Below are positions 9,231 to 31,792 of a stretch of DNA of 44,988 nucleotides, piece after piece. The translations under genes and the position numbers were made by a program. The stretch's first letter is position 1. Every line of letters starts with the position of its first letter. The stretch spans positions 1-44,988 of the forward strand of contig CAZXEZ010000001.1 of assembly GCA_964640255.1 (NCBI GenBank). Reading direction: 5' to 3'. The notes under the pieces were generated by a model. That model did no database searches and was not told the origin of the DNA. It saw nothing but the letters and a program-made list of their open reading frames with translations. Source of the DNA: an uncultured Methanosarcinales archaeon (GTDB lineage Archaea > Nanobdellota > Nanobdellia > Woesearchaeales > ARS49).

Positions 9231-9294
9231 GGCGGCAGTGGCGTAATGGCAGCGTACAGGACTGTGGCTCCTGTGGAGCGGGTTCGATTCCCAC
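9231..9294 (+). pseudogene. tRNA-His(GUG)-like gene lacking the 3' acceptor strand
   Basis: Has G-1, acceptor 5' strand GCGGCAG, D arm, a perfect anticodon stem CAGGA/TCCTG with loop CTGTGGC, and a TTCGATT T-loop. One mismatch in the T stem. No complement to the acceptor strand follows. Confidence 0.6.
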
Positions 9295-9413
9295 CTAACT
9301 TTGGAAAAGTTAGGATCAAAGGCGCTCCTTGTTCGAACTCAAGAAGCAACCTATATGATGTTTGCTCACGCAAACATGTATTTTACTCTTCTTTCGTTCT
9401 CACAATGTCACGC
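9295..9413 (+). repeat. 119-nt structured repeat, copy A
   Basis: Starts with hairpin CTAACTTT-GGA-AAAGTTAG and ends CACAATGTCACGC. Aligns along its full length with copies B and C. Confidence 0.8.
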
Positions 9414-9422
9414 AGTGACTAT

Positions 9423-9494
9423 GGCGGTAATGGTGTATTGGCAGCATATAAGACTGTGGATCTTATGGTGCGGGTTCGATTCCCGCTTGCCGCC
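9423..9494 (+). tRNA. tRNA-His (anticodon GUG) with encoded G-1
   Basis: Cloverleaf folded by hand. G-1 pairs with C73. Acceptor GCGGTAA/TTGCCGC, D stem GTGT/GCAT, anticodon stem TAAGA/TCTTA with loop CTGTGGA, T arm GCGGG-TTCGATT-CCCGC. No encoded CCA. Confidence 0.9.
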
Positions 9495-9613
9495 CTAACT
9501 TTAGAAAAGTTAGGATCAAAAGGCGCTCTTTGTTCAGGCTCCAGAAGCAATCCATCAGATGTTTTCTTCGAAAACATGGACTCAACTCTTCTCTCGCCTT
9601 CACAATGTCGCGC
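9495..9613 (+). repeat. 119-nt structured repeat, copy B
   Basis: Begins immediately after the tRNA-His discriminator base. Same architecture as copies A and C. Confidence 0.8.
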
Positions 9614-9626
9614 AAACGGTTCCGCC

Positions 9627-9658
9627 CTAACTTTAGAAAATGGAGAATCAAAGGGCGG
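9627..9658 (+). repeat. partial, degenerate 5' part of the 119-nt repeat
   Basis: CTAACTTTAGAAAATGGAGAATCAAAGGGCGG compared with CTAACTTTAGAAAAGTTAGGATCAAAAGGCGC. Preceded by GGTTCCGCC, which resembles a tRNA 3' remnant. Confidence 0.5.
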
Positions 9659-9673
9659 TATTTCTCAAAAAGA

Positions 9674-9681
9674 TTTATATA
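9674..9681 (+). promoter_or_regulatory. TATA box TTTATATA upstream of hisS
   Basis: 26 nt upstream of the ATG at 9707. An AGGTGA Shine-Dalgarno sequence lies at 9695..9700. Confidence 0.45.
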
Positions 9682-9706
9682 TACTAATGAATGCAGGTGA
9701 ATTAAA

Positions 9707-10966
9707 ATGAAATATCAAGCACCTAAAGGAATGGAAGATTATTATCCAGAAGAAGAAGCAGTAAAAAACAAGATCTTTCAGGTATTCAGGGATGTGGCTG
9801 TTAGATACGGCTTTCAGGAAGTCAGCAACCCTGCGATGGAGTCTTTCAAGCTATTGTCTGCTAAATCCGGGGAAGAGATAAAACAACAGATATTCATGAT
9901 AGAGAAAAGAGGCTCTGAAGACCTGGGCCTGAGATTTGACTTGACAGTGCCAATAACAAGATTATTCGTCACAAAACAGAGAGAGCTCACAAAACCAGTG
10001 AAATGGTTCTCAATCGGAAAGATGTGGAGGTATGAAGCTCCGCAAAAAGGGAGATTAAGAGAGTTTAGCCAATTAAGTATAGAGATGTTTGGCTCTGACA
10101 AGCCAGAGGCAGATGCTGAATTGCTTAATATGATAATCGACATAATGAAAGGGCTAGGTCTTACTGACAAAGATTTCTTTATCAAGATGAATAACAGGAA
10201 ATTACTAGAAGGAATACTTCTTACTGCAATCAAAAAAGAGCAGTTAGAGGCTGTCACACGTGTTATTGACAAGTCCAAGAAGCTGACAGATGCTGAATTT
10301 GAGCAGGAATTGCTTGATCTGGGCCTGGATAACTTTAAAATCGAGAGAATAAGGCATGCAATACAATTCAACGGCAATCCAAGCAAGGTCTTGAAAGAAA
10401 TCAGAGAGCATTTTGCAGACATTCCAGAGGAAACAAAAGCAGGAATAACTGAGATGGAGAACATCTGCAAACTAGTTGATGAAAGATACATCGTGCTAGA
10501 CCTGTCTGTTGCTAGAGGTTTGGCATATTATACAGGAACAGTGTTTGAGGTGTTTGACAAGCAAGAGAAGTTCAGGAGCATGGCAGGCGGCGGAAGATAT
10601 GACAACATGGTAAAATTATTCGGTGGAGAGAACTGCCCTGCAACAGGCTTTGCAATAGGGGAAGCTGTGACAACACTTGTTTTGCAGGACTGCAATAAAT
10701 TGCCAAAACCAGAACTGGGGCCTGAATATTTTGTTGCTGTTGTGAGCGAAGATGTAAAAGAAGATGCAATAAAATTAGCACAGAAACTAAGGAAGAAATA
10801 TAGAGTAGATATTGACTTGATGGGCAGGAAACTGAAGAAACAGTTTGAGTATGCCAATAGTATTGGTGCAAAAAAAGTGATTGTTGTGGGTCCTGATGAA
10901 GTCAAGGCAAAAGAATTCACTGTAAAAGACATGAAGACAGGGAAGGAAGAGAAAAAGAAGTTCTAG
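9707..10966 (+). CDS. hisS: histidine--tRNA ligase
   Basis: N-terminal APKGMEDYYP, class II motif 2 WRYEAPQKGRLREFSQ and GGGRYD motif 3 region, plus a C-terminal anticodon-binding domain. Confidence 0.95.
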   Translation: MKYQAPKGMEDYYPEEEAVKNKIFQVFRDVAVRYGFQEVSNPAMESFKLLSAKSGEEIKQQIFMIEKRGSEDLGLRFDLTVPITRLFVTKQRELTKPVKWFSIGKMWRYEAPQKGRLREFSQLSIEMFGSDKPEADAELLNMIIDIMKGLGLTDKDFFIKMNNRKLLEGILLTAIKKEQLEAVTRVIDKSKKLTDAEFEQELLDLGLDNFKIERIRHAIQFNGNPSKVLKEIREHFADIPEETKAGITEMENICKLVDERYIVLDLSVARGLAYYTGTVFEVFDKQEKFRSMAGGGRYDNMVKLFGGENCPATGFAIGEAVTTLVLQDCNKLPKPELGPEYFVAVVSEDVKEDAIKLAQKLRKKYRVDIDLMGRKLKKQFEYANSIGAKKVIVVGPDEVKAKEFTVKDMKTGKEEKKKF

Positions 10967-11009
10967 AGTAAAGAAAAGCTTAAATATTCCTTATGTATTC
11001 TACTAAAAT

Positions 11010-19405: not shown

Positions 19406-19438
19406 ATCTTTATAAAAAGTTAAGAATTGCTAGACTAG

Positions 19439-20257
19439 ATGTTACTTGGATATAATCAACCCAGGCCTACTGAAGAAAATTACAGGGATTTTCGAGACAA
19501 GCTTGTTACAGGCTTGAAAGATTTAGGCATAGCAGGCCTATCTTTAATGCTTTATGGTTCTTATATACGTGGCGATTACAATCCTGGAAGAAGCGACATA
19601 GATGCTGTTATGATATTTCCTGATGATGTTGTGATAGACAAGAGAAATCTTGCACAGGTGGCAATAGTTCTTCATAAGGCCTTGAAAGGAAATAACATTC
19701 CATTTCAAGTCTCTGTATCAGACTTGACAACCATGAAAGATGCAAGATTTAATACATATGATGAATCTTTCAAGAACTATTTTTTTGATGAAGAAGAAAC
19801 GATTGTTATTGGACCAGATTATAGAGCGGAATTCAGGTATGAACTCCCAACTATGAGCGAACAAACACCTGTAAGATTCAACCTAAGAAAATCAAGAACA
19901 GGATTATTGTTTGCAGAGCATGATCGACACGAAGATCATGAGACCTTCTTGAGAAGATTCACAAAAACAATGGATGCTGCCAGCAGAGGCTCAAAACAGA
20001 TACTATTCTTTATGGATGGCACACTAAGAAAAACAAGGTTTGCTGCAGAAGACTTAGTGGCAGACGTATTTCCAGAGATAGACAGCACTCCTTTATCAAG
20101 AATCAGAAAATTATATCAAAATCCTGCAAAAATAGACGCTATTTACGAAAAACCAGAGGAAATTATGCTATTATGGAATGCTACAGTCACTTTTTTTGAA
20201 GAGATGATCAGAGGATATATCAGGAAAGCACCTCGTGAAAAAGGTTGGGATAAGTGA
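19439..20257 (+). CDS. nucleotidyltransferase-domain protein (Pol-beta superfamily)
   Basis: LMLYGSYIRGDYNPGRSDIDAVMIF fits the GS...D.D signature. Confidence 0.7.
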   Translation: MLLGYNQPRPTEENYRDFRDKLVTGLKDLGIAGLSLMLYGSYIRGDYNPGRSDIDAVMIFPDDVVIDKRNLAQVAIVLHKALKGNNIPFQVSVSDLTTMKDARFNTYDESFKNYFFDEEETIVIGPDYRAEFRYELPTMSEQTPVRFNLRKSRTGLLFAEHDRHEDHETFLRRFTKTMDAASRGSKQILFFMDGTLRKTRFAAEDLVADVFPEIDSTPLSRIRKLYQNPAKIDAIYEKPEEIMLLWNATVTFFEEMIRGYIRKAPREKGWDK

Positions 20258-20409
20258 GCAAAACTTCAATTTATTCCCTGAAAATCCTTCGGAAAATTCC
20301 AGGCAAGGCATATAAAGAGTAAACCTGCTAAGTTCTTATGATTAAACCAAAACCTTTATATAACGTTTTGTTATATTTTATTATAACATGTTATATGAGG
20401 TGGATGATA

Positions 20410-20637
20410 ATGGTACAAGCAATAATAACCTTAGGAGAGCATGAAGATAGAGTGCTCACCATCATTAAAGGTAAATTCGGGCTAAAAAACAAGTCAGATG
20501 CGGTGAATTTTGTAATTGAAAGATTTGAGGAAGAGCTGCTTGAGCCGCAATTAAGGCCAGAATACAAGAAAGAATTAACTAAAATCATCAAAGGAAAACA
20601 TCTCTCTAAAAAAGAATTTGAAAAAGAGGTAGGTTAA
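20410..20637 (+). CDS. DUF2683-like antitoxin candidate
   Basis: MVQAIITLGEHEDRVLTIIKGKFGLKNKSDAVNFVIERFEEELLEP matches the DUF2683 pattern. Start moved from 20338. Directly precedes the RelE-like gene. Confidence 0.6.
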   Translation: MVQAIITLGEHEDRVLTIIKGKFGLKNKSDAVNFVIERFEEELLEPQLRPEYKKELTKIIKGKHLSKKEFEKEVG

Positions 20638-20639
20638 AA

Positions 20640-20906
20640 TTGTATGAATCTCGGTATAGTATAAAATTAGCTAAAAAATTAAAAAAACTGAAGAAAAAGA
20701 ATTTAAAACATTATTTGTTTGTTAGACAAAAAATGAATGAAATCTTAGAAAACCCACATCATAAACATAAAGAATTACGCTATTCAATGAAAAATGTCAA
20801 CAGAATTCATCTCGGACATTTTGTTTTAATTTTTATAATAGAGCATACCAAGAAAACAATTTCTTTTGAAGACTACGATCATCACGACAAAATATATAAA
20901 AATTAG
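20640..20906 (+). CDS. RelE/ParE-superfamily toxin candidate
   Basis: 88 aa with TTG start, 2 nt after the upstream stop. Basic N-terminus and C-terminal RIHLGHFVLIFIIEH...DYDHHDKIY resemble the RelE fold pattern. Confidence 0.5.
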   Translation: MYESRYSIKLAKKLKKLKKKNLKHYLFVRQKMNEILENPHHKHKELRYSMKNVNRIHLGHFVLIFIIEHTKKTISFEDYDHHDKIYKN

Positions 20907-20918
20907 AAAATAAAAAAA

Positions 20919-22382: not shown

Positions 22383-22823
22383 GTGAAATTAGGGGAGTGG
22401 TATAGAGAAAAGTGTGAGAGCATGGTAATCTTATTTGATCGGTTTAATTTATCGTCGGACATCTTTGAAATAATCTTTTCTACTGAGCAGCAGAAGATAG
22501 TCGCAAAAGAACTGATCAAATTTACCATCGAGAATACTGGAGAGATTACCAAGACACAGATGAGTTTTTTTGCAACGCAATTACATGATGGCAAGTACGA
22601 ATGTGTCTTAGATTCCGGAGTGCACAAGGGCAAGAAGGCAAAACTGAGCTACAACAAAAGACAATTCTACGACAGGATATTAACGCCGATGAAATCAATG
22701 GGCTTGATTGATTATGATCTTTACAAGAAAACGTACAAGATTTCTGATAAATTCTCAAATGACATGATGAAGATAGGCCTGATGTGGAAAGCTGAGTTAA
22801 GGAAGTTTGGTGTTAAGATATAA
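22383..22823 (+). CDS. hypothetical protein, probable winged-helix C-terminus
   Basis: 146 aa with GTG start. Its last 100 nt are duplicated at 23572..23671. Confidence 0.55.
   Translation: MKLGEWYREKCESMVILFDRFNLSSDIFEIIFSTEQQKIVAKELIKFTIENTGEITKTQMSFFATQLHDGKYECVLDSGVHKGKKAKLSYNKRQFYDRILTPMKSMGLIDYDLYKKTYKISDKFSNDMMKIGLMWKAELRKFGVKI
22720..22819 (+). repeat. 100-nt direct repeat, copy 1 (3' end of the 146-aa gene)
   Basis: 98/100 identical to 23572..23671. Both mismatches are synonymous third positions. Confidence 0.9.
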
Positions 22824-23153
22824 ATGACCAGCCCGCACGATAAACTGCTATACCAAGTTTCAGGGGCCATTTCCCGCATTTTTGATTTGTCATTTCTTAA
22901 AACAGCAGGATATGGGTCGAATCCTAGAAATATAGAGGATACTCTTGAGATAGACATGCTTGGCCAAAAAGGCAACATACTTTATGTATTCGAGGTAAAA
23001 ACAAACGAGAATGATACCTCTGAAGCGATAACACAGTTAAAAAACAGGCATTTAGGACTGAATTTGAACAAGGATAATATAGTCAATAAACAGAAGCAGC
23101 TGCCGCATTATGACTACATAAAATTGTTCATAGTGACTCCAAAGAATGTGTAG
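22824..23153 (+). CDS. small PD-(D/E)XK-like nuclease-fold protein
   Basis: EIDMLGQKGNILYVFEVKT fits D...(D/E)xK. The ATG directly follows the upstream TAA. Confidence 0.45.
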   Translation: MTSPHDKLLYQVSGAISRIFDLSFLKTAGYGSNPRNIEDTLEIDMLGQKGNILYVFEVKTNENDTSEAITQLKNRHLGLNLNKDNIVNKQKQLPHYDYIKLFIVTPKNV

Positions 23154-23263
23154 GAGATAAATGAAAAAGGCAGCCTTTTAAACAGGTGGCAGCTAGATAA
23201 AGTCATGAAAACCCCAGAAATAATCCAATAAGTTTAAATAGTTTAAAGACAGTAAAGAATAAC

Positions 23264-23569
23264 ATGAAATATCAAATCACAACCAAAAATAGAAAAGATT
23301 TTTTGGCATTACAGAACATATTAGATGATACCCTAAAAAATGGTGTTGTTGAAAGAACGATTCGTGGTGGTTTAATAACTCAGAACCAGGATAGTGCAAA
23401 AGTCACATATACTGGCCCAAACGTGTCTGCATATTTTGAGTTTGATAAGGTAAACGGCACATATGCTGGTGCTCTGGTTGTTGAGAAGGCACCAGAAGAG
23501 GCAGCAAATAAATTAGCTGCTAGAATAAAGAAAGAATTGCCTGCCCTAAAACCAGAAACTAAATCTTAG
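23264..23569 (+). CDS. hypothetical protein
   Basis: 101-aa ORF with a TTTAAATA box about 30 nt upstream. Confidence 0.5.
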   Translation: MKYQITTKNRKDFLALQNILDDTLKNGVVERTIRGGLITQNQDSAKVTYTGPNVSAYFEFDKVNGTYAGALVVEKAPEEAANKLAARIKKELPALKPETKS

Positions 23570-23571
23570 TT

Positions 23572-23671
23572 TTTACAAGAAAACATACAAGATTTCTGAT
23601 AAATTCTCAAATGACATGATGAAGATAGGCCTGATGTGGAAAGCTGAGTTAAGGAAGTTTGGGGTTAAGAT
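23572..23671 (+). repeat. 100-nt direct repeat, copy 2 (orphan gene 3' end)
   Basis: Encodes ...YKKTYKISDKFSNDMMKIGLMWKAELRKFGVKI followed by a stop, but has no 5' gene body. Confidence 0.9.
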
Positions 23672-23719
23672 TTAATATATTTCAAAAGGTTTAAATAGTT
23701 TCTTCACTAAGGATATTTT

Positions 23720-23956
23720 ATGGCAAAGATTCTTGAATCTGAATTAAGAGAAGAAAAAGTAAAACAAGCAGTAGACTTGTATTATGCTAGATTTGGTACT
23801 GAGGAGAGTGTTACTGTAAACGAAGCTGCGGCAAAATATGACATAAAAGGAATAGAAATTCATATGTATATTGCTGCAAGAACAGATGATGGTTTAGGAA
23901 TGCCTGAAACTCATGCAGAAGCAAAGAAATATCGTATTAATTTAATGCAATTATGA
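23720..23956 (+). CDS. hypothetical small protein
   Basis: 78-aa ORF with a TTTAAATA box about 25 nt upstream. Confidence 0.5.
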   Translation: MAKILESELREEKVKQAVDLYYARFGTEESVTVNEAAAKYDIKGIEIHMYIAARTDDGLGMPETHAEAKKYRINLMQL

Positions 23957-24446
23957 TAGTTTTCTAATTAATTCTTGTACATATGGCCGCCTAAAATTTA
24001 CTGCCAACAATTCATTCAAATATTTCAAAGAATCCTTTCTCGCAAACATTCCTTTTTCTTCTGCAATTTCGTATAAGTTTGCAATATCTCTTACTTGTCC
24101 GTGTCTGCCTAACTTGACTTCAGCCTCTTTATTAGCAAACAACATCTCATCTGCATCACTATAAAACTTGTGCGTGATCAATACTTCTATATCTGCCACA
24201 TCAGCTAATTCAAGTTTCTGAGACCACCTGCTGACTAATTTATCAAATCGCCTTTTTTCTTGTATAACCGCAGGAGGAATAATGAAATTATTTTGAACGA
24301 ATGTTTGATCTACTTGGAGAAATGTGACGATTTCACTAAGCGTTCCTGGAGACGTATAAACAGCATCGTATAAATCCCTAATTAAGTACAGTCTCCCAAT
24401 TTTGTCTAGCCATATTGCGGGGGGATGTATTAGATACGACTTTCAT
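23951..24446 (-). pseudogene. COG2405-type PIN-domain gene interrupted by a frameshift at a G6/C6 run
   Basis: The ATG at 24446 gives MKVVSNTSP, then a stop after 22 codons. The adjacent frame continues PAIWLDKIGRLYLIRDLYDAVYTSPGTLSEI...IIPPAVIQE... down to 23951. The frames switch at 24419..24424. Confidence 0.65.
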
Positions 24447-24470
24447 TTTATTAATTTAAAAGAATCAAAG

Positions 24471-24480
24471 TATTTAAAGA
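24471..24480 (-). promoter_or_regulatory. TATA box (TCTTTAAATA on minus strand)
   Basis: 25-34 nt upstream of the ATG at 24446. Confidence 0.45.
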
Positions 24481-24506
24481 TTATTATTTTTATTATTTAT
24501 GGGTGG

Positions 24507-24584
24507 TTATTTAGTCAAAACTTCTACCTTATCTGTAATCAACAGAGTATGTTCTGCCTGAGAGACCATTCCTTTGTTTTTCTC
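24507..24584 (-). repeat. orphan copy 'a' of the map gene 3' end (78 nt)
   Basis: Aligns with 28425..28499 of the live map gene, from the stop codon inward. Confidence 0.85.
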
Positions 24585-24664
24585 TGGTTAAACAAAAATT
24601 AACCACTATTAAGTGATTAAAAAACCAAAGATTTAAATACTCACGAATATTAACATGTAGCACC

Positions 24665-25435
24665 ATGAGCAAAGATGAATCAGTGGAATTTCAAACAAAG
24701 GAATTTCAAGAGGGTGAATTTAGACAAGTAATTGAAAGGTCTAAAGAATTGATAGCCAGAGGGTATTTTACCGGAATAAATTTTCTGCAATCAGAGGAGC
24801 CCCTGCCGACAAATTCAATAATCGTCCACTTTCTTCACGACAGCGAACAACATTTGGATGAAATCATATCCGCCGTGCCTGCTGCGCGTTTGGTAGTCCC
24901 TAGATTCACGTGCTACATGCTAAATCCTAAATATTTTCAAAAGCCCAATTTTGCTGAAGAATACCGAGATGTAGTTTTTTTCGATTCTAACTTTAATATA
25001 ATCACAGTTGAGGAGGCGATTGCAAAACCTTTGGGCGTGACAGTACTTAACCGAGAGTTGGATTTAATAGTCCCGCTTCACGGCAGTAAAGATTTATACG
25101 ATACTGTGCAAGCTTTGCAAGAGGCAGACAAAGAAGGCCCTTATCAGTGGATAGATCCGGTTCTTATTGTGAAAACAAAAACGCCTGTTACTGCTCTAGA
25201 AGGTTTTGTTGACAAACAGTATATTAGTATTGCAAAAGAAAGAGAAGAGTTTTATTCAATCTTAACCGACGAGGAAAGAACTGATGCCCTATCGAATTAT
25301 TTAGATAAATTGTGTGCAGCCACAAAAATAGGAACATTACAAAGAAGTGACGTTGTTTTCAATGCAAGCCAAGTAAACAAAAAGTTTGCAGATTTCTTAG
25401 TTAATATTCAGAACCAGCTTCGAATTCTTGAATAG
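24665..25435 (+). CDS. hypothetical protein
   Basis: 256-aa ORF with a TTTAAATA box about 25 nt upstream. No family recognised. Confidence 0.55.
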   Translation: MSKDESVEFQTKEFQEGEFRQVIERSKELIARGYFTGINFLQSEEPLPTNSIIVHFLHDSEQHLDEIISAVPAARLVVPRFTCYMLNPKYFQKPNFAEEYRDVVFFDSNFNIITVEEAIAKPLGVTVLNRELDLIVPLHGSKDLYDTVQALQEADKEGPYQWIDPVLIVKTKTPVTALEGFVDKQYISIAKEREEFYSILTDEERTDALSNYLDKLCAATKIGTLQRSDVVFNASQVNKKFADFLVNIQNQLRILE

Positions 25436-25718
25436 TTTCTCGCAATCTTTGTTTAGAATAAACACCTGTAAGTTTTTGAGAGCCTCCACCACGCACACCT
25501 TTTTCAAACGCCTCTTGTAATAGATTAACAACACCATTTTTATGTATGCGGCACTTATATTCTATTTCTCCCCAACCATATCGCCATTCACTAATACATC
25601 CGTCATCAGGTAATTCTGCAAGAACTTCAATTAATTTTGGTAGATTCTCCTGACTAATACAATCTAAACCTTCTATTTCTGGGTCTTCTGATGCTTTTCG
25701 CAATGTTTCTACTAACAT
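25401..25718 (-). CDS. hypothetical protein
   Basis: 105-aa ORF, convergent with and overlapping the 256-aa gene by 35 nt. Confidence 0.45.
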   Translation of the reverse strand: MLVETLRKASEDPEIEGLDCISQENLPKLIEVLAELPDDGCISEWRYGWGEIEYKCRIHKNGVVNLLQEAFEKGVRGGGSQKLTGVYSKQRLRETIQEFEAGSEY

Positions 25719-25790
25719 TTTCCTATGAATTATATGTCTCTAGAAGTATATAAATCTTTTGAAATAAATCTAGTAATATACGTAAAATAA

Positions 25791-26000
25791 CTAAATCTTA
25801 ATCAAAACTTCTACTTTATCTGTAATCAACAGAGTATGTTCTGCCTGTGAGACTATCCCTTTGTTTTTCTCGACTAAAGGAGGGAATTGCTTGATAATAT
25901 TGTTTTTCAGGAGTTCTCTCAATGCAAAATTAGTCTTGCCCAGGCCGAACTTTTTTGAGAGCCATCTTGTTGTGAATGGTAATGTCTTGTAGTTTTCGCC
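25791..26000 (-). pseudogene. orphan copy 'b' of the map gene 3' end (210 nt, 69 codons plus stop)
   Basis: Encodes GENYKTLPFTTRWLSKKFGLGKTNFALRELLKNNIIKQFPPLVEKNKGIVSQAEHTLLITDKVEVLIKI, colinear with the Map C-terminus. There is no gene body upstream. Confidence 0.9.
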
Positions 26001-27388
26001 TATGTCTGCGTTTCCCCAAAGCTTCAAAATCAGCTGAAATCCAATTCTTCTTCACTTAGCTGTTTTTGAACACTTCAAAACTGTTTCGTCATTTTCGAGT
26101 TTTAGAGCTTGTAGCCCTGAAATTCGAGCATTTCAGAGTTTTTACTCTCTAGTAAGTTTATGACGCTTTTTAGAAAATCCATCATAACTACTCCTTAATG
26201 ACGAAACCTTTATAAAGGATTACTGCCTTTAGCAAATCATTACCTTTAGAGGGGCGGAAAAATGACTGAAAACAAAAAAGAATCAGAAAATGAAGTAAGG
26301 CGCAGAGTATATCTTAAAAAGGCAATACAAGACTTTACTGAAGCAATTAGATTAAACCCAAAATATGATCAATATTATGTGAATCGCGGGATTGTTTATT
26401 CTAATCCACATGTTCGCGAGGTTATACAATATCTTAATCAGAATGGTCTAAGAGCAGAATTAAAAGACTCTGCACTTCAGGGAGATGATGTTGACATTCT
26501 TGCAACAGGAAGCCTTGAGGACATAACAGAAGTGACCTGTGCATTAAATGGAGCCAAGGATATTGCAGATCCATTCTACAGCACAGCTAGAGACAGTGAA
26601 GATTACACTGTTGTGCATGAAGGTGAAAATGTTGCTTACATGCGCGAGAATCTTGCACAGCTGTTCAAGATACTTGTCGGCGACACAAAAATTCATGTCG
26701 GATTGAAAACAAAGCCAAGTATTGATTAATTTTTTTTATTTCATATGCCTTGAAAAAGAGACCCTAAAATGCCGATGACAAAAACATTATGCGGAGTTCT
26801 GCACGATGAGGCAGACAAAGAGGAGATACAGCAAGTTCTAGATCTGATAGATAATACAAATCCCGCGAAAGTAGGATTAGAGATTACCAATAAATATGCA
26901 GAAACCAATCACTGCCCTGAATTTTTTGATAGGATACATGATTATGCAAGGACAAATGGAAGAAGGATAGTTCCTTTAGAGCACCAGCTTGCTCATGAAA
27001 AATACAGCATAGTAAACGCAGTTGTGCTGGTGCTTGAAGACAAGTTATCAAGGGAAAACCTTGAATTTTTGCTGCAGTACACTACAATTGAATTAAAAAA
27101 GAGATTCGCCTTAAAATCTTCACAAATACGCGCACTTGAAGAGAATCAAAAAACAACCAAACATGCACTCAAGCTGCTTGATAGTAATCCAACAAAAGAG
27201 GAAGCTATCAAATGGTATGAAGAAGCAGAAACTGAAAGAGAAAAACACATGTTAAACAGGATTCTGCGGCATAATCCAGATCTTGTTATTATTGGGGTCA
27301 AGCATGCAGAAGCAATAAAAGACAACCTGCAGGAGTATCAGTATATTTGCCTTGCAAAAAGAGATGCAGAAGGTATTTTTGAATCATA
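26001..27388. mobile_element. putative inserted cassette II (two genes)
   Basis: Bounded by map 3'-end fragments b and c. Confidence 0.45.
26262..26729 (+). CDS. hypothetical protein with one TPR-like repeat
   Basis: AIQDFTEAIRLNPKYDQYYVNRGIVY. TTTATAAA box upstream. Confidence 0.5.
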   Translation: MTENKKESENEVRRRVYLKKAIQDFTEAIRLNPKYDQYYVNRGIVYSNPHVREVIQYLNQNGLRAELKDSALQGDDVDILATGSLEDITEVTCALNGAKDIADPFYSTARDSEDYTVVHEGENVAYMRENLAQLFKILVGDTKIHVGLKTKPSID

Positions 27389-27389
27389 A
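26769..27389 (+). CDS. hypothetical protein
   Basis: 206-aa ORF. The stop abuts map fragment c. Confidence 0.5.
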   Translation: MPMTKTLCGVLHDEADKEEIQQVLDLIDNTNPAKVGLEITNKYAETNHCPEFFDRIHDYARTNGRRIVPLEHQLAHEKYSIVNAVVLVLEDKLSRENLEFLLQYTTIELKKRFALKSSQIRALEENQKTTKHALKLLDSNPTKEEAIKWYEEAETEREKHMLNRILRHNPDLVIIGVKHAEAIKDNLQEYQYICLAKRDAEGIFES

Positions 27390-27439
27390 TTTAGTTATTA
27401 CTTCCACCTTATCTGTAATCAACAGAGTATGTTCTGCCT
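27389..27439 (-). repeat. orphan copy 'c' of the map gene 3' end (about 51 nt)
   Basis: CTTCCACCTTATCTGTAATCAACAGAGTATGTTCTGCCT aligns with the live gene end. Contains a 5-nt diverged patch. Confidence 0.75.
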
Positions 27440-27862
27440 TTACTCCTCGACTAATGACGTTAAGAACTGGATAATCTTTGTTATTTCTTCCTTGTTTTTC
27501 TCATAAAAAGAGATATCAACTGCTTCACCGTAATAATGTAACAGGTTTCTTAAATAACTCATTTCTGAAATAAAATTAGCTTCAAACTCATTATCTGAAT
27601 GCTTTCGGTAAAAATAAGAGATAAGACATTGATGATTCTTTGATTTCAAGCCATGTTTTAGCAATAATGCCACAAGCAATTCCTTGATAATCTCATAATA
27701 ACCCTCAATGATAAAAGAAACATTATCTTGATTAACTTGCTGGATGTCAACAAATTTTCTTCTTTTAATGACTGTATCCAATATGGAACTGATCTTTTCC
27801 TTGTCAGGAGTCACAGTTCTGATAAATTGCCGCCTGCATTCGCCCCAATCCATCAAATTCAT
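27440..27862 (-). CDS. HEPN-domain protein (toxin candidate)
   Basis: 140-aa helical protein. YLRNLLHYYG resembles an R-x(n)-H HEPN motif. 4-nt overlap with the upstream nucleotidyltransferase gene. Confidence 0.55.
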   Translation of the reverse strand: MNLMDWGECRRQFIRTVTPDKEKISSILDTVIKRRKFVDIQQVNQDNVSFIIEGYYEIIKELLVALLLKHGLKSKNHQCLISYFYRKHSDNEFEANFISEMSYLRNLLHYYGEAVDISFYEKNKEEITKIIQFLTSLVEE

Positions 27863-28365
27863 CTTATTTTAAAAAACCCCGTAATCCTGATTCCGTTAAC
27901 CACATTATTAAATAAGTTGTCTGGCAAATTATTGATACTCTGTTCAGTAAAAAGCTGGATTTTGTGGCCCAATATCTTCTCAAATTTGGCCAAGTCCAAA
28001 TCCTGTTTCTTTAAGGCTTCAACAAACAAGTCAACATCACTTTCTTTAGCTGATTCGCCTTTCCTGAAACTGCCAAAAAGAATTATGCAGGACGGTCTTA
28101 ATTTCTCTGTTAAATACTCTATCAAACCGCTTTCAAATAACTCCTTAATATAAAAAAAGGTCTTTTCCGTTTTAAACAAAGCAGTACTGACTGCCTCGTT
28201 TTCTTTATTTACTCTTCTGCTTTTTTTAAGCTCTCTTAAATATTTATGAACAGTTGATTTTGGAATCCTTGTCTTTTTGGCTAGTTCCCGAACTGTAAAC
28301 TGCTTCTCAGGATACTCGTAAAAAATCCTTAGAATTTTGTCCAAATTATTGTACTTTAGTCCCAT
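27859..28365 (-). CDS. wHTH plus minimal nucleotidyltransferase (MNT, antitoxin candidate)
   Basis: LFGSFRKGESAKESDVDLFV fits GS...G....SD.DL. N-terminal FTVRELAKKTRIPKSTVHKYLRELK is an HTH. Confidence 0.7.
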   Translation of the reverse strand: MGLKYNNLDKILRIFYEYPEKQFTVRELAKKTRIPKSTVHKYLRELKKSRRVNKENEAVSTALFKTEKTFFYIKELFESGLIEYLTEKLRPSCIILFGSFRKGESAKESDVDLFVEALKKQDLDLAKFEKILGHKIQLFTEQSINNLPDNLFNNVVNGIRITGFFKIR

Positions 28366-28421
28366 TTTATGTCCTTAAGTCCCAATAAATGGATTAACTA
28401 TTTAAATGTTGTGCTTTTTCC

Positions 28422-29330
28422 TTAAGATTTAGTCAAAACTTCTACCTTATCTGTAATCAATAAAGTGTGCTCTGCCTGAGAGACTATCCCTTTGTTTTTC
28501 TCGACTAAAGGAGGGAATTGCTTGATAATGTTGTTTTTCAGGAGTTCTCTCAATGCAAAATTAGTCTTGCCTAAGCCGAATTTAGAGGATAACCATCTTG
28601 TTGTGAAAGGCAAGGTCTTGTAGTTCTCGCCGACAAACTTAAGTATTTCCCTGGCAAAAGGGCTTCTGACAGGCTTTGGGTTTGTGAGCATGAAGATGTT
28701 AGCTCTCTCTGACTCGTATATCATTCCTGCACCATCAGTTGCAAAAGGCTCGATAGCAATGCACATATTCTCCTCTATTTCAGTGTCATCGCCAGTGTCA
28801 AAATTAGGGATTGTTGGATCTGTGTGGATATCGTAATAATCCAATCCATGGCCGCTTAAATTCTTTATAGGCGAGAAACCATGACTAGAGATAGTCTCTT
28901 GGATGGTCTTTCCAATCTCTCCTAAAGTTGTTCCAATCTGAACAATCTTGATTGCATTATTCAGGGCCTCTCTAGAGGCTTTTACCAAATCAGAATATTT
29001 TCCGCTCAGATCAACTGTAAGAGCATTGTCTCCTATTGCTCCTTCAAAACAGGCACCAACATCCAGGCAGGCAACCTGATCCTCAAACACAATCTTATCG
29101 TCTGGATCTGCACAATAATGCGCAGCAATATGGTCGCAGGAAATCTGTGCAGGAAAAGCAGGTATTGCACCCAAGTCTACAATCTTTTTCTCTATCAAAT
29201 CAGAGACCTCTAGCAGAGTTGCGCCTTTCTTTATTAATCCTCCACCGTATTCAAGGGCCTGCGCTGCAATCTTCCCGGCTTTTTTCCATTTCTCTATGTC
29301 TTCTGGAGTTAACTCTGTTTCTTCTTCCAT
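28422..29330 (-). CDS. map: type 2 (archaeal) methionine aminopeptidase
   Basis: Pita-bread fold motifs (AHYCADPDD, LDVGA, HGL, IAIEPFAT) and the C-terminal winged-helix insert typical of MetAP2-type enzymes. Confidence 0.9.
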   Translation of the reverse strand: MEEETELTPEDIEKWKKAGKIAAQALEYGGGLIKKGATLLEVSDLIEKKIVDLGAIPAFPAQISCDHIAAHYCADPDDKIVFEDQVACLDVGACFEGAIGDNALTVDLSGKYSDLVKASREALNNAIKIVQIGTTLGEIGKTIQETISSHGFSPIKNLSGHGLDYYDIHTDPTIPNFDTGDDTEIEENMCIAIEPFATDGAGMIYESERANIFMLTNPKPVRSPFAREILKFVGENYKTLPFTTRWLSSKFGLGKTNFALRELLKNNIIKQFPPLVEKNKGIVSQAEHTLLITDKVEVLTKS

Positions 29331-29449
29331 AGGTAGTGGAGAATTACAATGTCTTTATATTTGTTGCGGTAAGTAGAACTAGAGAAAACTAATGATAAAT
29401 TCCACGATTTGTATTGCGATGTTGATTGATGTCATTTTAGTCTCGCTTT

Positions 29450-29488
29450 ATAAAAAAAGGAAAATTAGAAATCCGGGGGGATTTCTAA
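29450..29488 (-). terminator. hairpin plus T-tract downstream of the signal peptidase gene
   Basis: Perfect 10-bp stem TTAGAAATCC/GGATTTCTAA with a 4-nt loop (29465..29488), followed on the minus strand by TTTTCCTTTTTTT. Confidence 0.5.
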
Positions 29489-29529
29489 ATTCCCAAAAAC
29501 AAATAGGTTTTTGCGAAAAATAAAAAAAT

Positions 29530-30228
29530 CTAATAGATAAACGCTATAGCTTTTCTCTGAAGCTGCTCAAATCTGATCCTTCCAGGGTCTGGAATCGGAT
29601 TGTTGTCACCTTGGAAAATAGCATACCAGCCATCCTCGTCCTGGCCAATCTCCTTGATTCTGTGGATTATGTTTCCATAATCTGTCTTATAGGAAACTAT
29701 GTCACCAACCCTTACATCAGATGTTCTCTGAGGAACTACCTCTATAGCGTTGTGTTGTGCGTCAAATACAGGGTCCATAGAGTTTGTGTCAGCAAAAGCT
29801 GCCAAGATCGGACTCTGAACGTCTATAACAACCTTGTCTGGATAGATGTGAATTTGGTATTCCTTGATATAGTCGCCAGGAGAGTCTCTCTCTGGAATAA
29901 CTTCTGGGAACTTACTGTATTCTGGGCCGAATACACTAAAGTCCATGTTCTGAACTTCTGCCATTGTAATCTCTCTATAATCTGGAACTGTTGCCAGTTT
30001 AGGTTCTGGACAAACAGGAACCTCTGGACAGACCTGTTCATTGTCTTGATCAACTAATGGAGTTTCATCTACTTGCACATCAGCAAGAGATGCGCTGTCT
30101 CCCTGCACAGGAACTGGAACATTGTCCTGTATAGGGGCAGTCATGTTGGCTCCAATTGCACCAGCTGCAGCGCCGAACGCAAAAACAACCATTAAAATCA
30201 CTGCAAACAATTTGTTTCTCAGTTTCAT
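29530..30228 (-). CDS. S26-family (Sec11/SPase I-like) signal peptidase with long N-terminal extension
   Basis: TNSMDPVF (SM.P Ser motif), GDIVSY...IIHRI and QGDNNPIPD. Start set at MKLRNK, which has a GGGGGT SD sequence. Confidence 0.6.
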   Translation of the reverse strand: MKLRNKLFAVILMVVFAFGAAAGAIGANMTAPIQDNVPVPVQGDSASLADVQVDETPLVDQDNEQVCPEVPVCPEPKLATVPDYREITMAEVQNMDFSVFGPEYSKFPEVIPERDSPGDYIKEYQIHIYPDKVVIDVQSPILAAFADTNSMDPVFDAQHNAIEVVPQRTSDVRVGDIVSYKTDYGNIIHRIKEIGQDEDGWYAIFQGDNNPIPDPGRIRFEQLQRKAIAFIY

Positions 30229-30487
30229 TGTTATTACCCCCAAGTAAACACTGTTATTGCTAAATATGTATGTTCTAGTATATAAAGGTTTTGTTTTTTG
30301 TCACTAAGGAATGGTAAACAGTGCTTTTAGAGGGTGAGCTTAATTATTACCATATGCAAAATAATTAGTTGGTCAATTGTTTGCAATATGCAAAATATAT
30401 GATGTTAACTATAGGTTATAGCACTTAAAAAAAAAGAGCAACCTATAAATAGAATCAAATACTTTACTCTATCTGGTGGGGAAATAA

Positions 30488-31639
30488 ATGAACATATCCA
30501 ACATTCTAATGATAGGCTTCTTAATAGCACTCAGCCTGACTATATTGATCTTTAGAAAGAGATTTGTTTTCCAGAGCTTTGGGAAAATATTTTATTTCGG
30601 AATGTACAAGACAAAAGTAGGGCTGAAGCTGATGGACAGATGGTCTAAAAAATACCCAAGAATATTGACGAGGCTGTGCTATCTGTCAATAGTGATTGGA
30701 TTCTTGGGAATGATACTGGTAGTATTTGACCTGATAAAATCAGGATACCAGATATTGACTGGAACAAGCACATTATCAGTCGGACTGGTATTGCCTGTTC
30801 AGGCAAAAGGAGTGTTTTATGTCCCATTTATTTATTGGATAATCGCAATAGCAGTCATCGTTGTCATACACGAGTTTTCACATGGATTGATAGCAAGACT
30901 GCATAAAATAAAAGTAAGGAGCTCTGGAGTTGCATTCTTAGGAATCATTATACCATTAATACCTGCAGCATTTGTAGAGCCAGATGAAAAACAATTAAGA
31001 AAAGCATCCAGGTTCAAGCAATTAAGTGTCTATGCAGCAGGACCATTTGCAAACATTGTCTTTGGATTTCTATTCTTAGGAATATTTGCACTGATACTAA
31101 ACCCATTTGCAGCCTCTTTATACAATTTTGAGGGCGTAAAAGTAAATGATTTTATGGGTGCTGAAAGTCCTGCAGAGATAAGCGGCATGGCAACAGGAGA
31201 GATAATAACAGAGATAAATGATGCTGAGATAAAGAATACAGAGGATTTTCTTAAATCAATAGAAGATGCAGAGCCAGGAGATGTTGCAGAGATAAAGACC
31301 ACAGAAAAAAGTTATTCTGTTTTATTAGAGGAAGATCCAGCTGAGAAAGATGCATTCTTAGGAGTTTGGGTATCAACAGAGAAGACAATGAAAGACAAAA
31401 GTTTATTCTCTTATTTCATAATCTGGGTGACTGACTTGTTCTACTGGTTATTTTTATTGAACTTAGGAGTGGGGTTGTTTAACCTGGTTCCAATCGGGCC
31501 TATTGACGGTGGAAGAATGCTCCAGACAGTGCTTGAAAAAGTGATGCCTAATAAACGTGCAACAAGAGTGTGGCACACTGTGAGTGTTGTTGTGTTGATG
31601 ATTATCGTCAGTAATATTATTTATGCTTTTGTCGCTTAA
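30488..31639 (+). CDS. site-2 protease (M50 family) with PDZ-like insert
   Basis: HEFSHGLIA (HExxH) and NLVPIGPIDGGRM (NxxPxxxxDG). Multiple TM helices. Confidence 0.9.
   Translation: MNISNILMIGFLIALSLTILIFRKRFVFQSFGKIFYFGMYKTKVGLKLMDRWSKKYPRILTRLCYLSIVIGFLGMILVVFDLIKSGYQILTGTSTLSVGLVLPVQAKGVFYVPFIYWIIAIAVIVVIHEFSHGLIARLHKIKVRSSGVAFLGIIIPLIPAAFVEPDEKQLRKASRFKQLSVYAAGPFANIVFGFLFLGIFALILNPFAASLYNFEGVKVNDFMGAESPAEISGMATGEIITEINDAEIKNTEDFLKSIEDAEPGDVAEIKTTEKSYSVLLEEDPAEKDAFLGVWVSTEKTMKDKSLFSYFIIWVTDLFYWLFLLNLGVGLFNLVPIGPIDGGRMLQTVLEKVMPNKRATRVWHTVSVVVLMIIVSNIIYAFVA
31609..31637 (+). repeat. 29-nt direct repeat, copy 1 (last codons of the S2P gene)
   Basis: CAGTAATATTATTTATGCTTTTGTCGCTT, identical to 31764..31792. 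Confidence 0.9.
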
Positions 31640-31758
31640 GCGCGATATTGTGAAGGCGAGAGAAGAGTTGAACCCCTGTTTGCGAAGCAAACAGCTGACA
31701 GAATGCTTCTCGAGCCTGAACAAAGAGCGCCCTTTGATCCTAACTTTTTCAAAGTTAG
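31640..31758 (-). repeat. 119-nt structured repeat, copy C
   Basis: The reverse complement aligns end to end with copies A and B. It forms the core of the 126-nt insert 31638..31763. Confidence 0.8.
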
Positions 31759-31763
31759 ATTGA

Positions 31764-31792
31764 CAGTAATATTATTTATGCTTTTGTCGCTT
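31764..31792 (+). repeat. 29-nt direct repeat, copy 2
   Basis: Identical to the S2P gene end. Here it is followed by GA, giving the presumed ancestral TGA stop. Confidence 0.9.

Follow-up and report, generated by a model that had tools for sequence, protein, structure and literature searches.

Insertions that are bracketed by duplicated gene ends and carry no recombinase look like a little-described route of gene gain in streamlined archaea. The window, i.e., the whole 45-kb stretch of DNA analysed here (44,988 nucleotides), derives from a DPANN (Woesearchaeota) archaeon with a tiny and very gene-dense genome, in which neighbouring genes abut or even overlap. DPANN archaea in general have tiny, tightly packed genomes and, to our knowledge, few classical gene-transfer vehicles have been described for them. 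The repeats were established by self-blastn and by direct reading of the letters. The duplicated gene ends with their inserts are a real feature and not an artefact of assembly, and the same architecture is shared by assemblies that were made independently in different studies (L003, L013, L014, L018, L010 and L015). Because the sister genomes L001 and L002 hold empty sites, the inserts are genuine insertions, as a first-pass annotation of this DNA had assumed. Pfam scans covered about 60 ORFs of the window and the array ORFs of L003 and L021. In agreement with the annotation, no recombinase domain was detected among the window ORFs and the cargo is free of integrases; about 20 kb of arrays, those of L003 and L021 included, yielded neither an integrase nor a fragment of one, and none adjoins the starts of the arrays at map, tRNA-Lys and the 146-aa gene.

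Duplicated gene ends in the window

Downstream of map, three orphan 3' ends separate three two-gene cassettes, which confirms the earlier proposal of serial events at this gene:

28422-29330, minus strand: map, methionine aminopeptidase (Peptidase_M24, Pfam), the target gene
27465-28421, minus strand: cassette cas1, a toxin-antitoxin pair of an HTH-nucleotidyltransferase (MntA-like) and a HEPN protein (domain match, cross-genome identity)
27389-27464, minus strand: map orphan A, a repeat of the map 3' end with 51-56 nt well conserved
26001-27388, unstranded: cassette cas2, a 155-aa TPR protein and a 206-aa protein (ORFs, Pfam)
25796-26000, minus strand: map orphan B, 203-210 nt, 90% identity (self-blastn)
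24585-25795, unstranded: cassette cas3, a 256-aa ORF (plus), a 105-aa ORF (minus) and a palindrome-plus-TATA module by orphan C
24509-24584, minus strand: map orphan C, 76 nt, 92% identity (self-blastn)
23676-24508, unstranded: segment between the two outermost orphans, with a 78-aa ORF and an apparently disrupted minus-strand ORF; no Pfam match

All three map orphans lie on the map strand and in frame, and each is closed by a stop codon at, or at most one codon from, the original position. Each cassette has an orphan length of its own (51, 76 or 203 nt), and both flanks are of the host type. Orphan A encodes ...VEVITKL*, the C-terminus of the functional map of L002, and orphan B differs from map in 16 synonymous vs. 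three non-synonymous codons, with a stop codon replaced by another. The block CAGGCAGARCAYAC is kept in all copies of the map end, and orphan A starts inside it at AGGCAGA. Homologues of the 206-aa gene of cas2 are located upstream of map in L001, L002 and L003. In L001 the 3' ends of map and the 146-aa gene share 10 nt in a tail-to-tail overlap. The order of the cassettes differs between the window, L003 and L013.

At the 146-aa gene the insert starts at the base right after the stop codon, and all three differences between gene and orphan are synonymous. Orthologues of the gene occur in L001, L002, L003 and L013, all of which are devoid of the cassette:

22383-22823, plus strand: 146-aa target gene, the last 104 nt of which (22720-22823) are repeat copy 1 (self-blastn)
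22824-23571, plus strand: cassette with a 109-aa PD-(D/E)xK/YraN-like ORF and a 101-aa ORF
23572-23675, plus strand: orphan copy of the last 104 nt of the 146-aa gene, 97% identity

The insert at the S2P protease gene is a 119-nt element:

30488-31639, plus strand: S2P protease (Peptidase_M50, Pfam), the target gene
31640-31758, plus strand: 119-nt element in F orientation, directly 3' of the S2P stop codon (covariance model, 139 bits)
31759-31795, plus strand: orphan S2P 3' end with a TGA stop codon

The last 32 nt of S2P recur at 31764-31795 (about 41 nt if an indel is allowed), with TAA changed to TGA. L002 has no element at S2P, and the orphan of the window together with the downstream DNA corresponds to the uninterrupted arrangement of that genome, so the locus is not a tandem duplication. 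The S2P orphan of L014 bears the functional ending of L001.

The fourth locus is tRNA-His:

9232-9294, plus strand: pseudo-tRNA-His, 63 nt from the 5' side of another tRNA-His allele, without the 3' acceptor strand (Rfam tRNA, 39.6 bits)
9295-9413, minus strand: copy E1 of the 119-nt element, the RNA-like "F" strand being minus (covariance model, 132 bits)
9424-9495, plus strand: functional tRNA-His (GTG), 62.8 bits
9495-9613, minus strand: copy E2 of the element, abutting the tRNA-His 3' end (covariance model, 140 bits)
9622-9663, plus strand: partial repeat, composed of the terminal 5 nt of the tRNA (CCGCC) and a degenerate copy of the initial 37 nt of the element

A distal duplicate of the target's 3' end, claimed before for all four loci, was thus borne out at map, the 146-aa gene and S2P. 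At tRNA-His the 3' end is repeated at 9622 for only 5 nt, with the remainder of the 19-42-nt repeat representing the beginning of the element. The strong duplicate of this tRNA is the upstream 5' fragment, and a further copy of the element comes after it. The pseudo-tRNA keeps 20 of 25 pairs and has three compensatory ones, and its truncation point is the same in L015 and L010. L015, a co-occurring strain, is 99.8% identical to the window in the flank and just 85-89% in the tRNA-His/element segment. Truly tandem loci are tRNA-His in the window, L008, L016 and part of L017. The expectation that a duplicate is always present failed at a 1.5-kb insert between a methyltransferase gene and FtsZ, which has none whatsoever.

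Functional and orphan copies differ in 55 synonymous vs. 18 non-synonymous codons, and the synonymous bias is significant in eight of ten pairs (simulation, P <= 0.006). Together with the three compensatory pairs of the pseudo-tRNA this supports the earlier statement that the differences are synonymous or preserve pairing.

Exchange of cassettes between clades

The cassette cas1 is 90-92% identical to its counterparts in L003 and L013, whereas the map genes of those clades are only about 75% identical to that of the window. Its sharp boundaries lie 2-3 nt past the stop codon on one side and where the orphan starts on the other; since its identity exceeds that of map and its boundaries are sharp, cas1 has moved horizontally. 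The cassette cas3 is 89% identical to L003, again with sharp boundaries, and for both cassettes the identities (89-92%) stand against 75-84% for the core genes of these clades. For both exchanged cassettes, cas1 and cas3, the two flanking map-end copies are of the host-clade type, which fails to support the earlier view that the insert carries a diverged copy of its target. The window map is of the host type through its last codon and shows no mosaic 3' part, although the adjoining cas1 is imported. The window, L003 and L013 have an identical junction of cas1 with orphan A, and the junction of casX with a 76-nt orphan is alike at different array positions in L003 and L013. As the same cassette-orphan junction is found across clades and positions, the unit must travel together with its junction.

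The gene pair of the cas3 type has homologues in five other contexts. The flank is 76 nt of map in the window and L003, the duplicated 3' half of tRNA-Lys in L021, where an array with four partial tRNA-Lys repeats is present, and intergenic or promoter repeats of 47, 28 and 34 nt in L026, L028 and L019. Thus cassette contents do recur at other targets, as had been suspected, and since promoter DNA is duplicated as well, the rule is broader than the 3' ends to which it had been restricted; the duplicated 5' fragment of tRNA-His is a further exception. The cas3 family has termini that vary from context to context, and the hairpin modules which precede some orphans are not conserved either. No circular forms or junction reads were seen, and L027 is only a sub-interval of the integrated state in L026.

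The 119-nt element

The 119-nt element is an undescribed structured RNA. Its copies at three sites of the window, two at tRNA-His and one on the opposite strand at S2P, share 88% identity; the first-pass annotation had missed that these elements are the same. The fold comprises a long rod-like hairpin, a U-rich linker and an 8-bp hairpin. Covariation is of the RNA type, with 11 of 33 pairs covarying and G-U pairs on one strand only. Rfam returned no match over the element even at E <= 1, and only tRNA matched at the gathering score.

The element occurs at at least eight different gene ends and is usually flanked by a target duplication of 15-63 nt. In Type I copies, defined as those transcribed in the same direction as the target, the architecture is target end, 0-41 nt of filler, element and duplicate. 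Such sites are S2P, DNA ligase, ZPR1, tRNA-Met, tRNA-Gln and another tRNA end; at tRNA-His the element is antisense. The 3' hairpin fixes one junction precisely, and the variable filler lies at the other junction. The 3' junction shows a microhomology of 1-4 nt, and perfect repeats of 15, 21, 34 and 63 nt are present. Fillers 5' of the element gave no match to the flanks of any other copy, and the copies at MgtC (L007) and at tRNA-His of L013 have no detectable flanking repeat. At DNA ligase the orphan is a diverged, in-frame foreign C-terminus. The termini of the element (GCGCGAYATTGTG... and ...AAAGTTAG) are unrelated and there are no terminal inverted repeats. Within tRNA genes the junctions are located in the T-loop (tRNA-Met, tRNA-Gln and tRNA-His) or, for tRNA-Lys, in the anticodon loop, which we take to be classic crossover sublocations of tyrosine integrases.

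Origin of the insertions and known systems

The explanation we favour, which we regard as possible although short of probable, is a duplicative insertion of horizontally acquired DNA of the microhomology type, filtered by selection and followed by reshuffling at the repeats. A foreign or ectopic segment would be joined in without a cassette-encoded recombinase, likely through template switching mediated by microhomology or, at a staggered break, through illegitimate joining, so that the insert would end up between two copies of 15-210 nt of the target. Because neighbouring genes abut or overlap, an insertion would survive only if its duplication restores a whole gene end, tRNA or promoter, and this selection would make the inserts appear to be placed exactly at the stop codon. 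In their afterlife, which is partly shown by the exchange described above, the direct repeats would turn each insert into an exchangeable cassette, and recombination at the repeats would move, reorder and swap cassettes among related genomes, either by pop-out and pop-in of circles or by allelic homologous recombination with relatives. Repeat copies would be continually replaced by functional alleles circulating in the population, which is our proposed reason why the copies differ synonymously, and the same process would also copy the 119-nt element to new gene ends. What we infer here is the origin by template switching or illegitimate joining, together with the filter of selection and the circles as intermediates. 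Against the favoured explanation stand the shared cassette-orphan junctions with host-type repeats, which it accounts for only by later allelic replacement, the tRNA junctions in the T-loop or anticodon loop, the unmatched fillers 5' of the element, the copies at MgtC (L007) and at tRNA-His of L013 with no flanking repeat detected, and the fact that neither circles nor junction reads were seen. The joint picture reaches further and is, as a whole, rather doubtful: DPANN archaea may possess a general route of gene acquisition without a cassette-encoded recombinase, with essential-gene ends, tRNA ends and at times promoters as landing pads, by which any DNA is inserted with a 15-210-nt target duplication and later circulates as a cassette. 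It would include a new family of ~119-nt structured RNAs that copy themselves past stop codons, defined by the 3' hairpin and primed by microhomology. Copying of the element by template switching, or even mediated by RNA, could be a prokaryotic analogue of SINE-like target-primed insertion.

A serious rival, albeit an unlikely one, regards the inserts as miniature integrative elements or satellites that lack an integrase. Each cassette would carry an attP-like gene-end fragment beside a hairpin module, and a site-specific recombinase encoded elsewhere in the genome or by a helper would act on it in trans. The enzyme might be a tyrosine recombinase, and repeated integration could build the arrays. 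Orphan length and junction are indeed cassette-specific and conserved across clades, CAGGCAGARCAYAC with the start of orphan A inside it recurs in every map-end copy, the tRNA junctions fall into the T-loop or anticodon loop, and the arrays with partial gene or tRNA repeats, the tRNA-Lys array of L021 among them, resemble tycheposon islands. A low specificity as in the pTN3 integrase is possible, and this enzyme, which recombines any sequence pair sharing at least 104 bp, provides a precedent (PMC5495485). However, at least 12 unrelated targets including promoters would have to be recognized, with repeats down to 15-28 nt, the termini of the cas3 family vary between contexts, both repeats are of the host-clade type after transfer between clades, and the arrays (~20 kb) and the 45-kb window contain no integrase or fragment of one. 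The annotation had considered Campbell-type capture of circular DNA or a trans-acting system. Either may apply, but a single crossover with a foreign fragment does not predict the host-type flanks, and with perfect repeats of just 15-21 nt at some targets homologous capture of the 119-nt element is implausible there.

Displacement of 3' ends by homology-facilitated illegitimate recombination, as proposed for Rhs/T6SS effector arrays, is less credible. The 3' part of a relative's gene with its downstream DNA would be anchored by homology within the gene, and an illegitimate joint shortly before the resident stop codon would push the old end downstream as a 5'-truncated orphan. The allele-like differences of the copies, the S2P orphans (that of the window continuing into the uninterrupted L002 arrangement, that of L014 with the functional ending of L001), the foreign C-terminus at DNA ligase, the microhomology at the distal junction and the published precedent (PMC5361080) are in line with it. 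Yet the conserved unit is a cassette with its distal junction and not an orphan with the following cassette, and the same junction is found at different array positions, whereas each event should create an illegitimate distal junction of its own. The functional 3' end should moreover derive from the donor, while the window map is host-type throughout without a mosaic part beside the imported cas1, though a donor of the same clade is possible; and displacement cannot deliver the 119-nt element to new genes or into promoters. We consider a dedicated transposition system acting in trans with long, variable target-site duplications (a DDE enzyme of the IS1634/IS1549 type or a Cas1-like integrase) to be improbable. 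It would suit the perfect 15-63-nt repeats at many unrelated targets and the host-type flanks on both sides, and IS1634 is cited for direct repeats of variable length; IS1634 and IS1549 themselves create such long repeats. On the other hand, neither terminal inverted repeats nor conserved ends are present in the inserts, transposases and Cas1 were not seen, a given cassette keeps its repeat length from clade to clade, the allele-like divergence between repeats requires additional recombination, and the insert ends of the cas3 family already vary from event to event. Assembly artefacts, or ordinary tandem duplication followed by deletion, which had been named as the refuting outcome, are scarcely conceivable: some loci are truly tandem as listed above, but the architecture recurs in the six independent assemblies, the copies are diverged with a coding signature, at S2P the orphan and the DNA that follows it equal the empty site of L002, and the cassettes are unrelated to the flanking DNA.

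Among known systems, tycheposons of Prochlorococcus insert new modules by a conserved gene and push older ones outward, so that partial gene-end copies remain between the cargo of these streamlined hosts (10.1101/2020.12.28.424599). Like tycheposons and archaeal tRNA-integrating elements ("gene capture"), the arrays described here combine a full gene or tRNA with partial end repeats and tandem inserts (three orphans at map, one each at the 146-aa gene and S2P, four at tRNA-Lys of L021). They differ in that no integrase or remnant was found in any array examined here, in the small size of the modules (0.12-1.4 kb) and repeats (15-210 nt), and in the targets, which include essential protein genes, the 5' part of a tRNA and promoters. 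Arrays of Rhs/CDI/T6SS effector-immunity genes, attributed to homology-facilitated illegitimate recombination, likewise show 5'-truncated orphan 3' regions past an intact gene and successive horizontal additions without a dedicated recombinase (PMC5361080). Their orphans are polymorphic toxin tips that differ in function, in contrast to the near-identical housekeeping-gene ends found here, and the unit conserved here is the cassette with its distal junction instead of an orphan with the downstream DNA. In E. coli, e14 and phage 21 integrate into the protein gene icd and provide a replacement 3' end. There, too, the gene is restored with a synonymously diverged end and the original is left as a distal fragment, but these elements are full-size, encode their own integrase and use a single fixed att site. 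Integrons resemble the arrays in their small one- or two-gene cassettes with a recurring repeat similar to a recombination site and shuffled between genomes; they were rejected, as no intI is present at the array heads (map, tRNA-Lys or the 146-aa gene) and the separators are copies of host gene ends of the host-clade type instead of attC palindromes. In addition, many of the cassettes here have their own promoters. Insertion sequences of the IS1634/IS1549 type and MITEs share the long variable direct repeats and the small non-coding multicopy elements, and were dismissed in view of the unrelated element termini, the repeats of 15-63 nt and the lack of a detected transposase. A casposon does not fit either, with no Cas1 domain found, repeats of 15-210 nt in place of a target-site duplication of about 14-15 bp, and no terminal inverted repeats, nor does a diversity-generating retroelement: the window has no reverse transcriptase, and the differences between orphan B and map affect all four bases instead of template adenines alone and are mostly synonymous.

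The findings bear on how DPANN archaea gain toxin-antitoxin pairs, nucleases and defence-like genes. Gene gain at these loci never breaks the adjoining essential gene, and the cassettes are exchanged between lineages and reshuffled within the gene-end repeat arrays. The orphan gene ends represent dated "fossil alleles" which could be used to reconstruct the history of recombination. The 119-nt element, with its clear strand, covariation support and defined niche just past stop codons, is a putative terminator or 3'-UTR module, the function and copying mechanism of which are directly testable.

Insert loci in the window and their empty sites

The window (44,988 nt, G+C 38.5%) carries archaeal housekeeping genes, namely pyrBI, hisS, dCTP deaminase, DEAD-box helicase, ftsZ, map, S2P protease and an Rrf2 regulator, and its nearest public genomes are Candidatus Woesearchaeota MAGs. 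An exact database look-up of the map protein yielded no record. The first-pass annotation had described four loci at which inserted DNA begins at the 3' end of a gene and is bounded distally by a spare copy of that end, here termed orphan. The repeats were verified by self-blastn and direct sequence reading, and the loci comprise the following features:

28422..29330, minus strand: map (methionine aminopeptidase), target with three same-strand orphans downstream
27389-27464, map strand: map orphan A
25796-26000, map strand: map orphan B
24509-24584, map strand: map orphan C
cas1, cassette behind map: MntA-like nucleotidyltransferase and HEPN
cas2, cassette behind map: TPR protein and 206-aa protein
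cas3, cassette behind map: 256-aa ORF and 105-aa ORF
22383..22823: 146-aa gene, target of a 748-nt cassette
30488..31639: S2P protease gene, target, with a 119-nt non-coding element directly after it
9295-9413 and 9495-9613, strand opposite to the S2P copy: 119-nt element at tRNA-His

The three two-gene cassettes behind map are separated by orphans A, B and C. At the 146-aa gene the cassette starts at the first base past the stop codon, encodes a 109-aa PD-(D/E)xK/YraN-like ORF and a 101-aa ORF, and is followed by a 104-nt copy of the gene end. The element behind S2P precedes a copy of the last 32 nt of this gene (about 41 nt with an indel), in which TAA is changed to TGA. With 78-88% identity, the copies at tRNA-His represent the same 119-nt element. 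Neither further orphans (tblastn of the last 45 aa of each gene against the complete window) nor further element copies (covariance-model search of the window) were detected beyond these loci.

The proposed duplication of the tRNA-His 3' end held only in part: a distal repeat is present, but it is confined to CCGCC, next to the degenerate relic of a third copy of the element. Instead, a long duplicate lies upstream, a 63-nt 5' fragment of another tRNA-His allele, a pseudo-tRNA without the 3' acceptor strand. In a co-occurring strain (contig L015) the flank is 99.8% identical to the window, and the segment of pseudo-tRNA, element and second tRNA-His shows 85-89% overall identity; the differences are located in pseudo-tRNA and element, with no change in the functional tRNA-His. 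As no 3' exon follows copy 1, a split or intron-containing tRNA was rejected.

Empty sites in two sister genomes, L001 and L002, established that the inserts are real insertions. The convergent map and 146-aa genes of L001 share an overlap of 10 nt, without any DNA in between; in L002 the two enclose one small ORF but no orphans. The element is also absent from S2P of L002, where the TGA stop and downstream DNA correspond to the S2P orphan and downstream DNA of the window. Further arrays were found in two related contigs, L003 (map, cas1, A', casX, B', cas3, C') and L013 (map, casX, orphan, cas1, A'', 146-aa gene), in which casX is a cassette with a 285-aa protein. The order of cas1 and casX is swapped between both arrays, and cas2 of the window occupies the place of casX in L003. 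Since these arrays stem from independent assemblies of different studies, an assembly artefact is excluded.

Behind the S2P stop of L001 (919-960, reverse strand) lies GCGCGATATTTTGAA, identical to the start of the element at 14 of its first 15 nt; the DNA beyond it is unrelated. The S2P ending of L001 also resembles a hybrid of the functional and orphan copies of contig L014, and the site is possibly the scar of a lost element. Homologs of the cas2 206-aa gene (window 26769-27389) with about 70% nucleotide identity are ordinary neighbors just upstream of map in three sister genomes (L001 3286-3911, L002 5796-6407, L003 9323-9949, the latter with a weak ArdA-like match), so that a "core" neighbor gene appears as cassette cargo in the window.

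Allelic divergence of the copies and mobility of the cassettes

In ten pairs of functional and orphan gene ends, 55 synonymous and 18 non-synonymous codon differences were counted, and stop codons change solely to other stops. Random-mutation simulations gave a synonymous bias with P <= 0.006 in eight of the ten pairs, and the pseudo-tRNA-His carries three compensatory pairs, which bears out, as a bias, the earlier observation of synonymous or pair-preserving differences. Moreover, several orphans contain functional endings: orphan A encodes the exact functional map C-terminus of L002, the S2P orphan of L014 has the functional S2P ending found in L001, and a 66-nt ligase orphan in contig L012 is an in-frame, conservatively diverged C-terminus. 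Owing to this bias and these endings, the orphans are not neutrally decaying duplicates; they were parts of working genes for most of their divergence, or such alleles replace them continually. The absence of a reverse transcriptase and of adenine-specific mismatches led to the rejection of a diversity-generating retroelement.

As units with precise ends, the cassettes move horizontally. Core genes group the window with the array-free L001 and L002, with nucleotide identities of 79-80% for map (vs. 75-76% to L003 and L013) and 88-90% for ftsZ (vs. 81-84%). Cassette identities nevertheless reach 90-92% for cas1 (window, L003 and L013) and 89% for cas3 (window and L003). They fall sharply 0-3 nt past the stop at one boundary and with the first orphan bases at the other. 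Each cassette is flanked by two map-end copies of the host-clade type (...ITDKVEV... in the window, L001 and L002; ...(I/V)(E/D)DK(V/I)EIL... in L003 and L013), and a search for mosaic map genes with a donor-type 3' part found none. Orphan length is constant per cassette across genomes (51-56 nt for cas1, 76-78 nt for cas3 and casX), and casX and cas3, whose proteins are unrelated, have a distal module of about 55 nt with palindrome and TATA box in common. With 32.7-37%, the G+C content of the cassettes is lower than that of core genes. Viral contigs gave zero matches to the element pattern, the map C-terminus, the cas3 256-aa protein and the casX 285-aa protein, and thus no evidence of a viral carrier.

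A hairpin ends exactly at the cassette-orphan junction of the element, the 146-aa-gene cassette and the window cas3; neither cas3 of L003 nor casX of L013 conserves it, so the interpretation does not build on it. A GATTAT(G/C)(A/G)TC motif just upstream of two repeats is probably due to chance.

The 119-nt element and further insertion contexts

One metagenome scan located the element (GCGCGAYATTGTGA...CCTAACTTTTCTAAAGTTAG in F orientation, the RNA-like strand) at twelve loci. Same-strand copies lie behind the ends of S2P, DNA ligase, ZPR1, tRNA-Met and another tRNA, and a short variant lies behind tRNA-Gln. Antisense copies, whose 3' hairpin abuts the gene end, occur at MgtC (L007) and the tRNA-His 3' end (window, L013) with little or no detectable repeat; upstream of tRNA-His the element is antisense as well (window, L015, L010). 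Where a repeat is detectable, the target end is followed by 0-41 nt of unique filler, the element and the target-end duplicate, which begins within 0-6 nt of the 3' hairpin with a microhomology of 1-4 nt. The flanking repeats measure 15-63 nt and are perfect in L011 (15 nt), L017 (21 and 34 nt) and L010 (63 nt). Comparison of the 5' fillers of all copies for carried donor flanks revealed no significant sharing.

An alignment of 17 copies comprises 33 pairs, 11 of them with compensatory changes, and about 14 G-U cells in F orientation vs. one A-C. Selection therefore acts on an RNA of the F strand. The element is unmatched in Rfam even at E <= 1. The variant behind tRNA-Gln (L008 3845-4150), arranged in tandem with the last 16 nt of the tRNA and downstream DNA, has a different 24-nt hairpin and keeps the 3' module (TTTTTGATCC and the TAACTTTTTAAAAGTTA hairpin), which suggests that this module is the conserved working part.

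Cassette contents recur at different targets, as homologs of the cas3 gene pair in other DPANN contigs are found at tRNA-Lys and in promoter DNA. Intergenic, TATA-containing direct repeats flank the pair in L026 (47 nt), L028/L029 (28 nt) and L019/L020 (34 nt), so that the downstream host gene keeps a promoter; no repeat was found around the pair in L022-L025, and the cassette termini differ between contexts. The Logan contig L027 (SRR27205366_586120, 1216 bp, present in 3 samples) consists of exactly one cas3-type cassette and one repeat copy with a 23-nt terminal overlap, a layout that fits an excised circle as well as graph branching around a polymorphic insertion. As proof of a circular cassette it was rejected because it is identical to positions 778-1993 of the integrated L026 copy.

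In the more distant DPANN contig L021 (2014-10435), tRNA-Lys(CTT) is followed by four orphan tRNA 3' halves (near 5929, 7147, 9143 and 10400), which separate cassettes from one another; the cargo includes radical SAM, aldo-keto reductase and Peptidase_S51 genes and a cas3-like pair. A T-stem variant (CCCCT) and an upstream module are common to three of the four orphans and missing from the functional tRNA. No integrase was found in this array, and unannotated 284-314-aa proteins of the arrays gave no hint of one (Pfam, E <= 1).

A 1.5-kb insert of the window (19406-20918), located between a methyltransferase gene and the convergent ftsZ, encodes a 272-aa nucleotidyltransferase, a 99-aa ORF and a ParE toxin. 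L002 lacks the insert, and both genes abut there; unlike the other loci, this one has no flanking duplicate. The proposed restriction to gene 3' ends is thus too narrow, as a tRNA 5' fragment and promoter DNA are duplicated as well.

Proposed mechanism and relation to known systems

As noted initially, no recognizable recombinase is encoded in the window, and several arrays likewise yielded none, which excludes a cassette-borne recombinase for the sequences examined. The observations as a whole are not explained by any one classical mechanism. The Campbell-type capture considered at first, a single crossover, homologous or site-specific, predicts one donor-type flank after inter-clade transfer, whereas both flanks are host-type, and homologous recombination cannot use repeats of 15-28 nt or 73% identity. 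Displacement by homology-facilitated illegitimate recombination (PMC5361080) would create a new junction per event and a donor-type functional end, neither of which was observed (the latter as judged for donors from other clades), and pure target-site duplication predicts neither cassette-specific repeat lengths nor allele-like divergence.

On these grounds we favor a two-layer model. New inserts would originate from duplicative joining of the microhomology type, through template switching or at staggered breaks, which would account for arbitrary cassette ends, variable repeat lengths, the filler and the precise 3' junction of the element at its hairpin. In a genome of abutting and overlapping genes, selection would retain only inserts that regenerate a whole gene end, tRNA or promoter. 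In the second layer, the repeats would allow cassettes to be excised, re-inserted, reordered and exchanged among relatives, and functional alleles of relatives would steadily replace the repeats through allelic recombination. As its main rival we regard trans integration by a tyrosine recombinase, for which the cassette-specific junctions, a conserved block in every map-end copy and the position of the tRNA junctions in T-loop and anticodon loop speak; it is further supported by an archaeal integrase that recombines any two sequences with 104 bp or more in common (PMC5495485).

For Woesearchaeota and other DPANN archaea, a literature search retrieved no report of such cassettes. A comparable layout with partial gene ends as separators is known from tandem integrative elements such as tycheposons and from Rhs and T6SS displacement arrays, and e14 and phage 21 in icd provide synonymously diverging replacement 3' ends. 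The present arrays differ in several respects: none of those examined yielded a recombinase, the units are very small (119 nt to 1.4 kb), the targets are diverse (essential protein genes, both tRNA ends and promoters), the flanks are host-type on both sides, and one member is a structured RNA element not previously described.

Some further features of the window were recorded. A minus-strand gene (23951-24445) is apparently disrupted: the frame starting with the ATG at 24445 terminates after 23 codons, and an 82-aa ORF (23951..24199) continues it in another frame. It may be the decayed partner of a 78-aa ORF between the outermost orphans. This ORF has a weak version of a C-terminal motif of about 40 aa (..EY...GxS/T..I...L...GW......K) common to a 206-aa secreted protein and a 1491-aa surface protein (coordinates 5670-6290, 23720-23956 and 38366-38482). 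The latter (34010-38485) is one of two giant surface proteins with internal repeats of about 400 nt; the other (38626-44988, >2115 aa, running off the window) contains a subtilase S8 domain and MopE-type metal-binding repeats. The Rrf2-family regulator (31866-32273, Pfam E = 1.9e-34) has no ATG, GTG or TTG start, and its frame opens directly past a TAA with ACG AAA CTG TCA. The ACG opening after TAA recurs in L002 and L003, in the latter with codons identical to the window, which suggests a non-canonical start codon.
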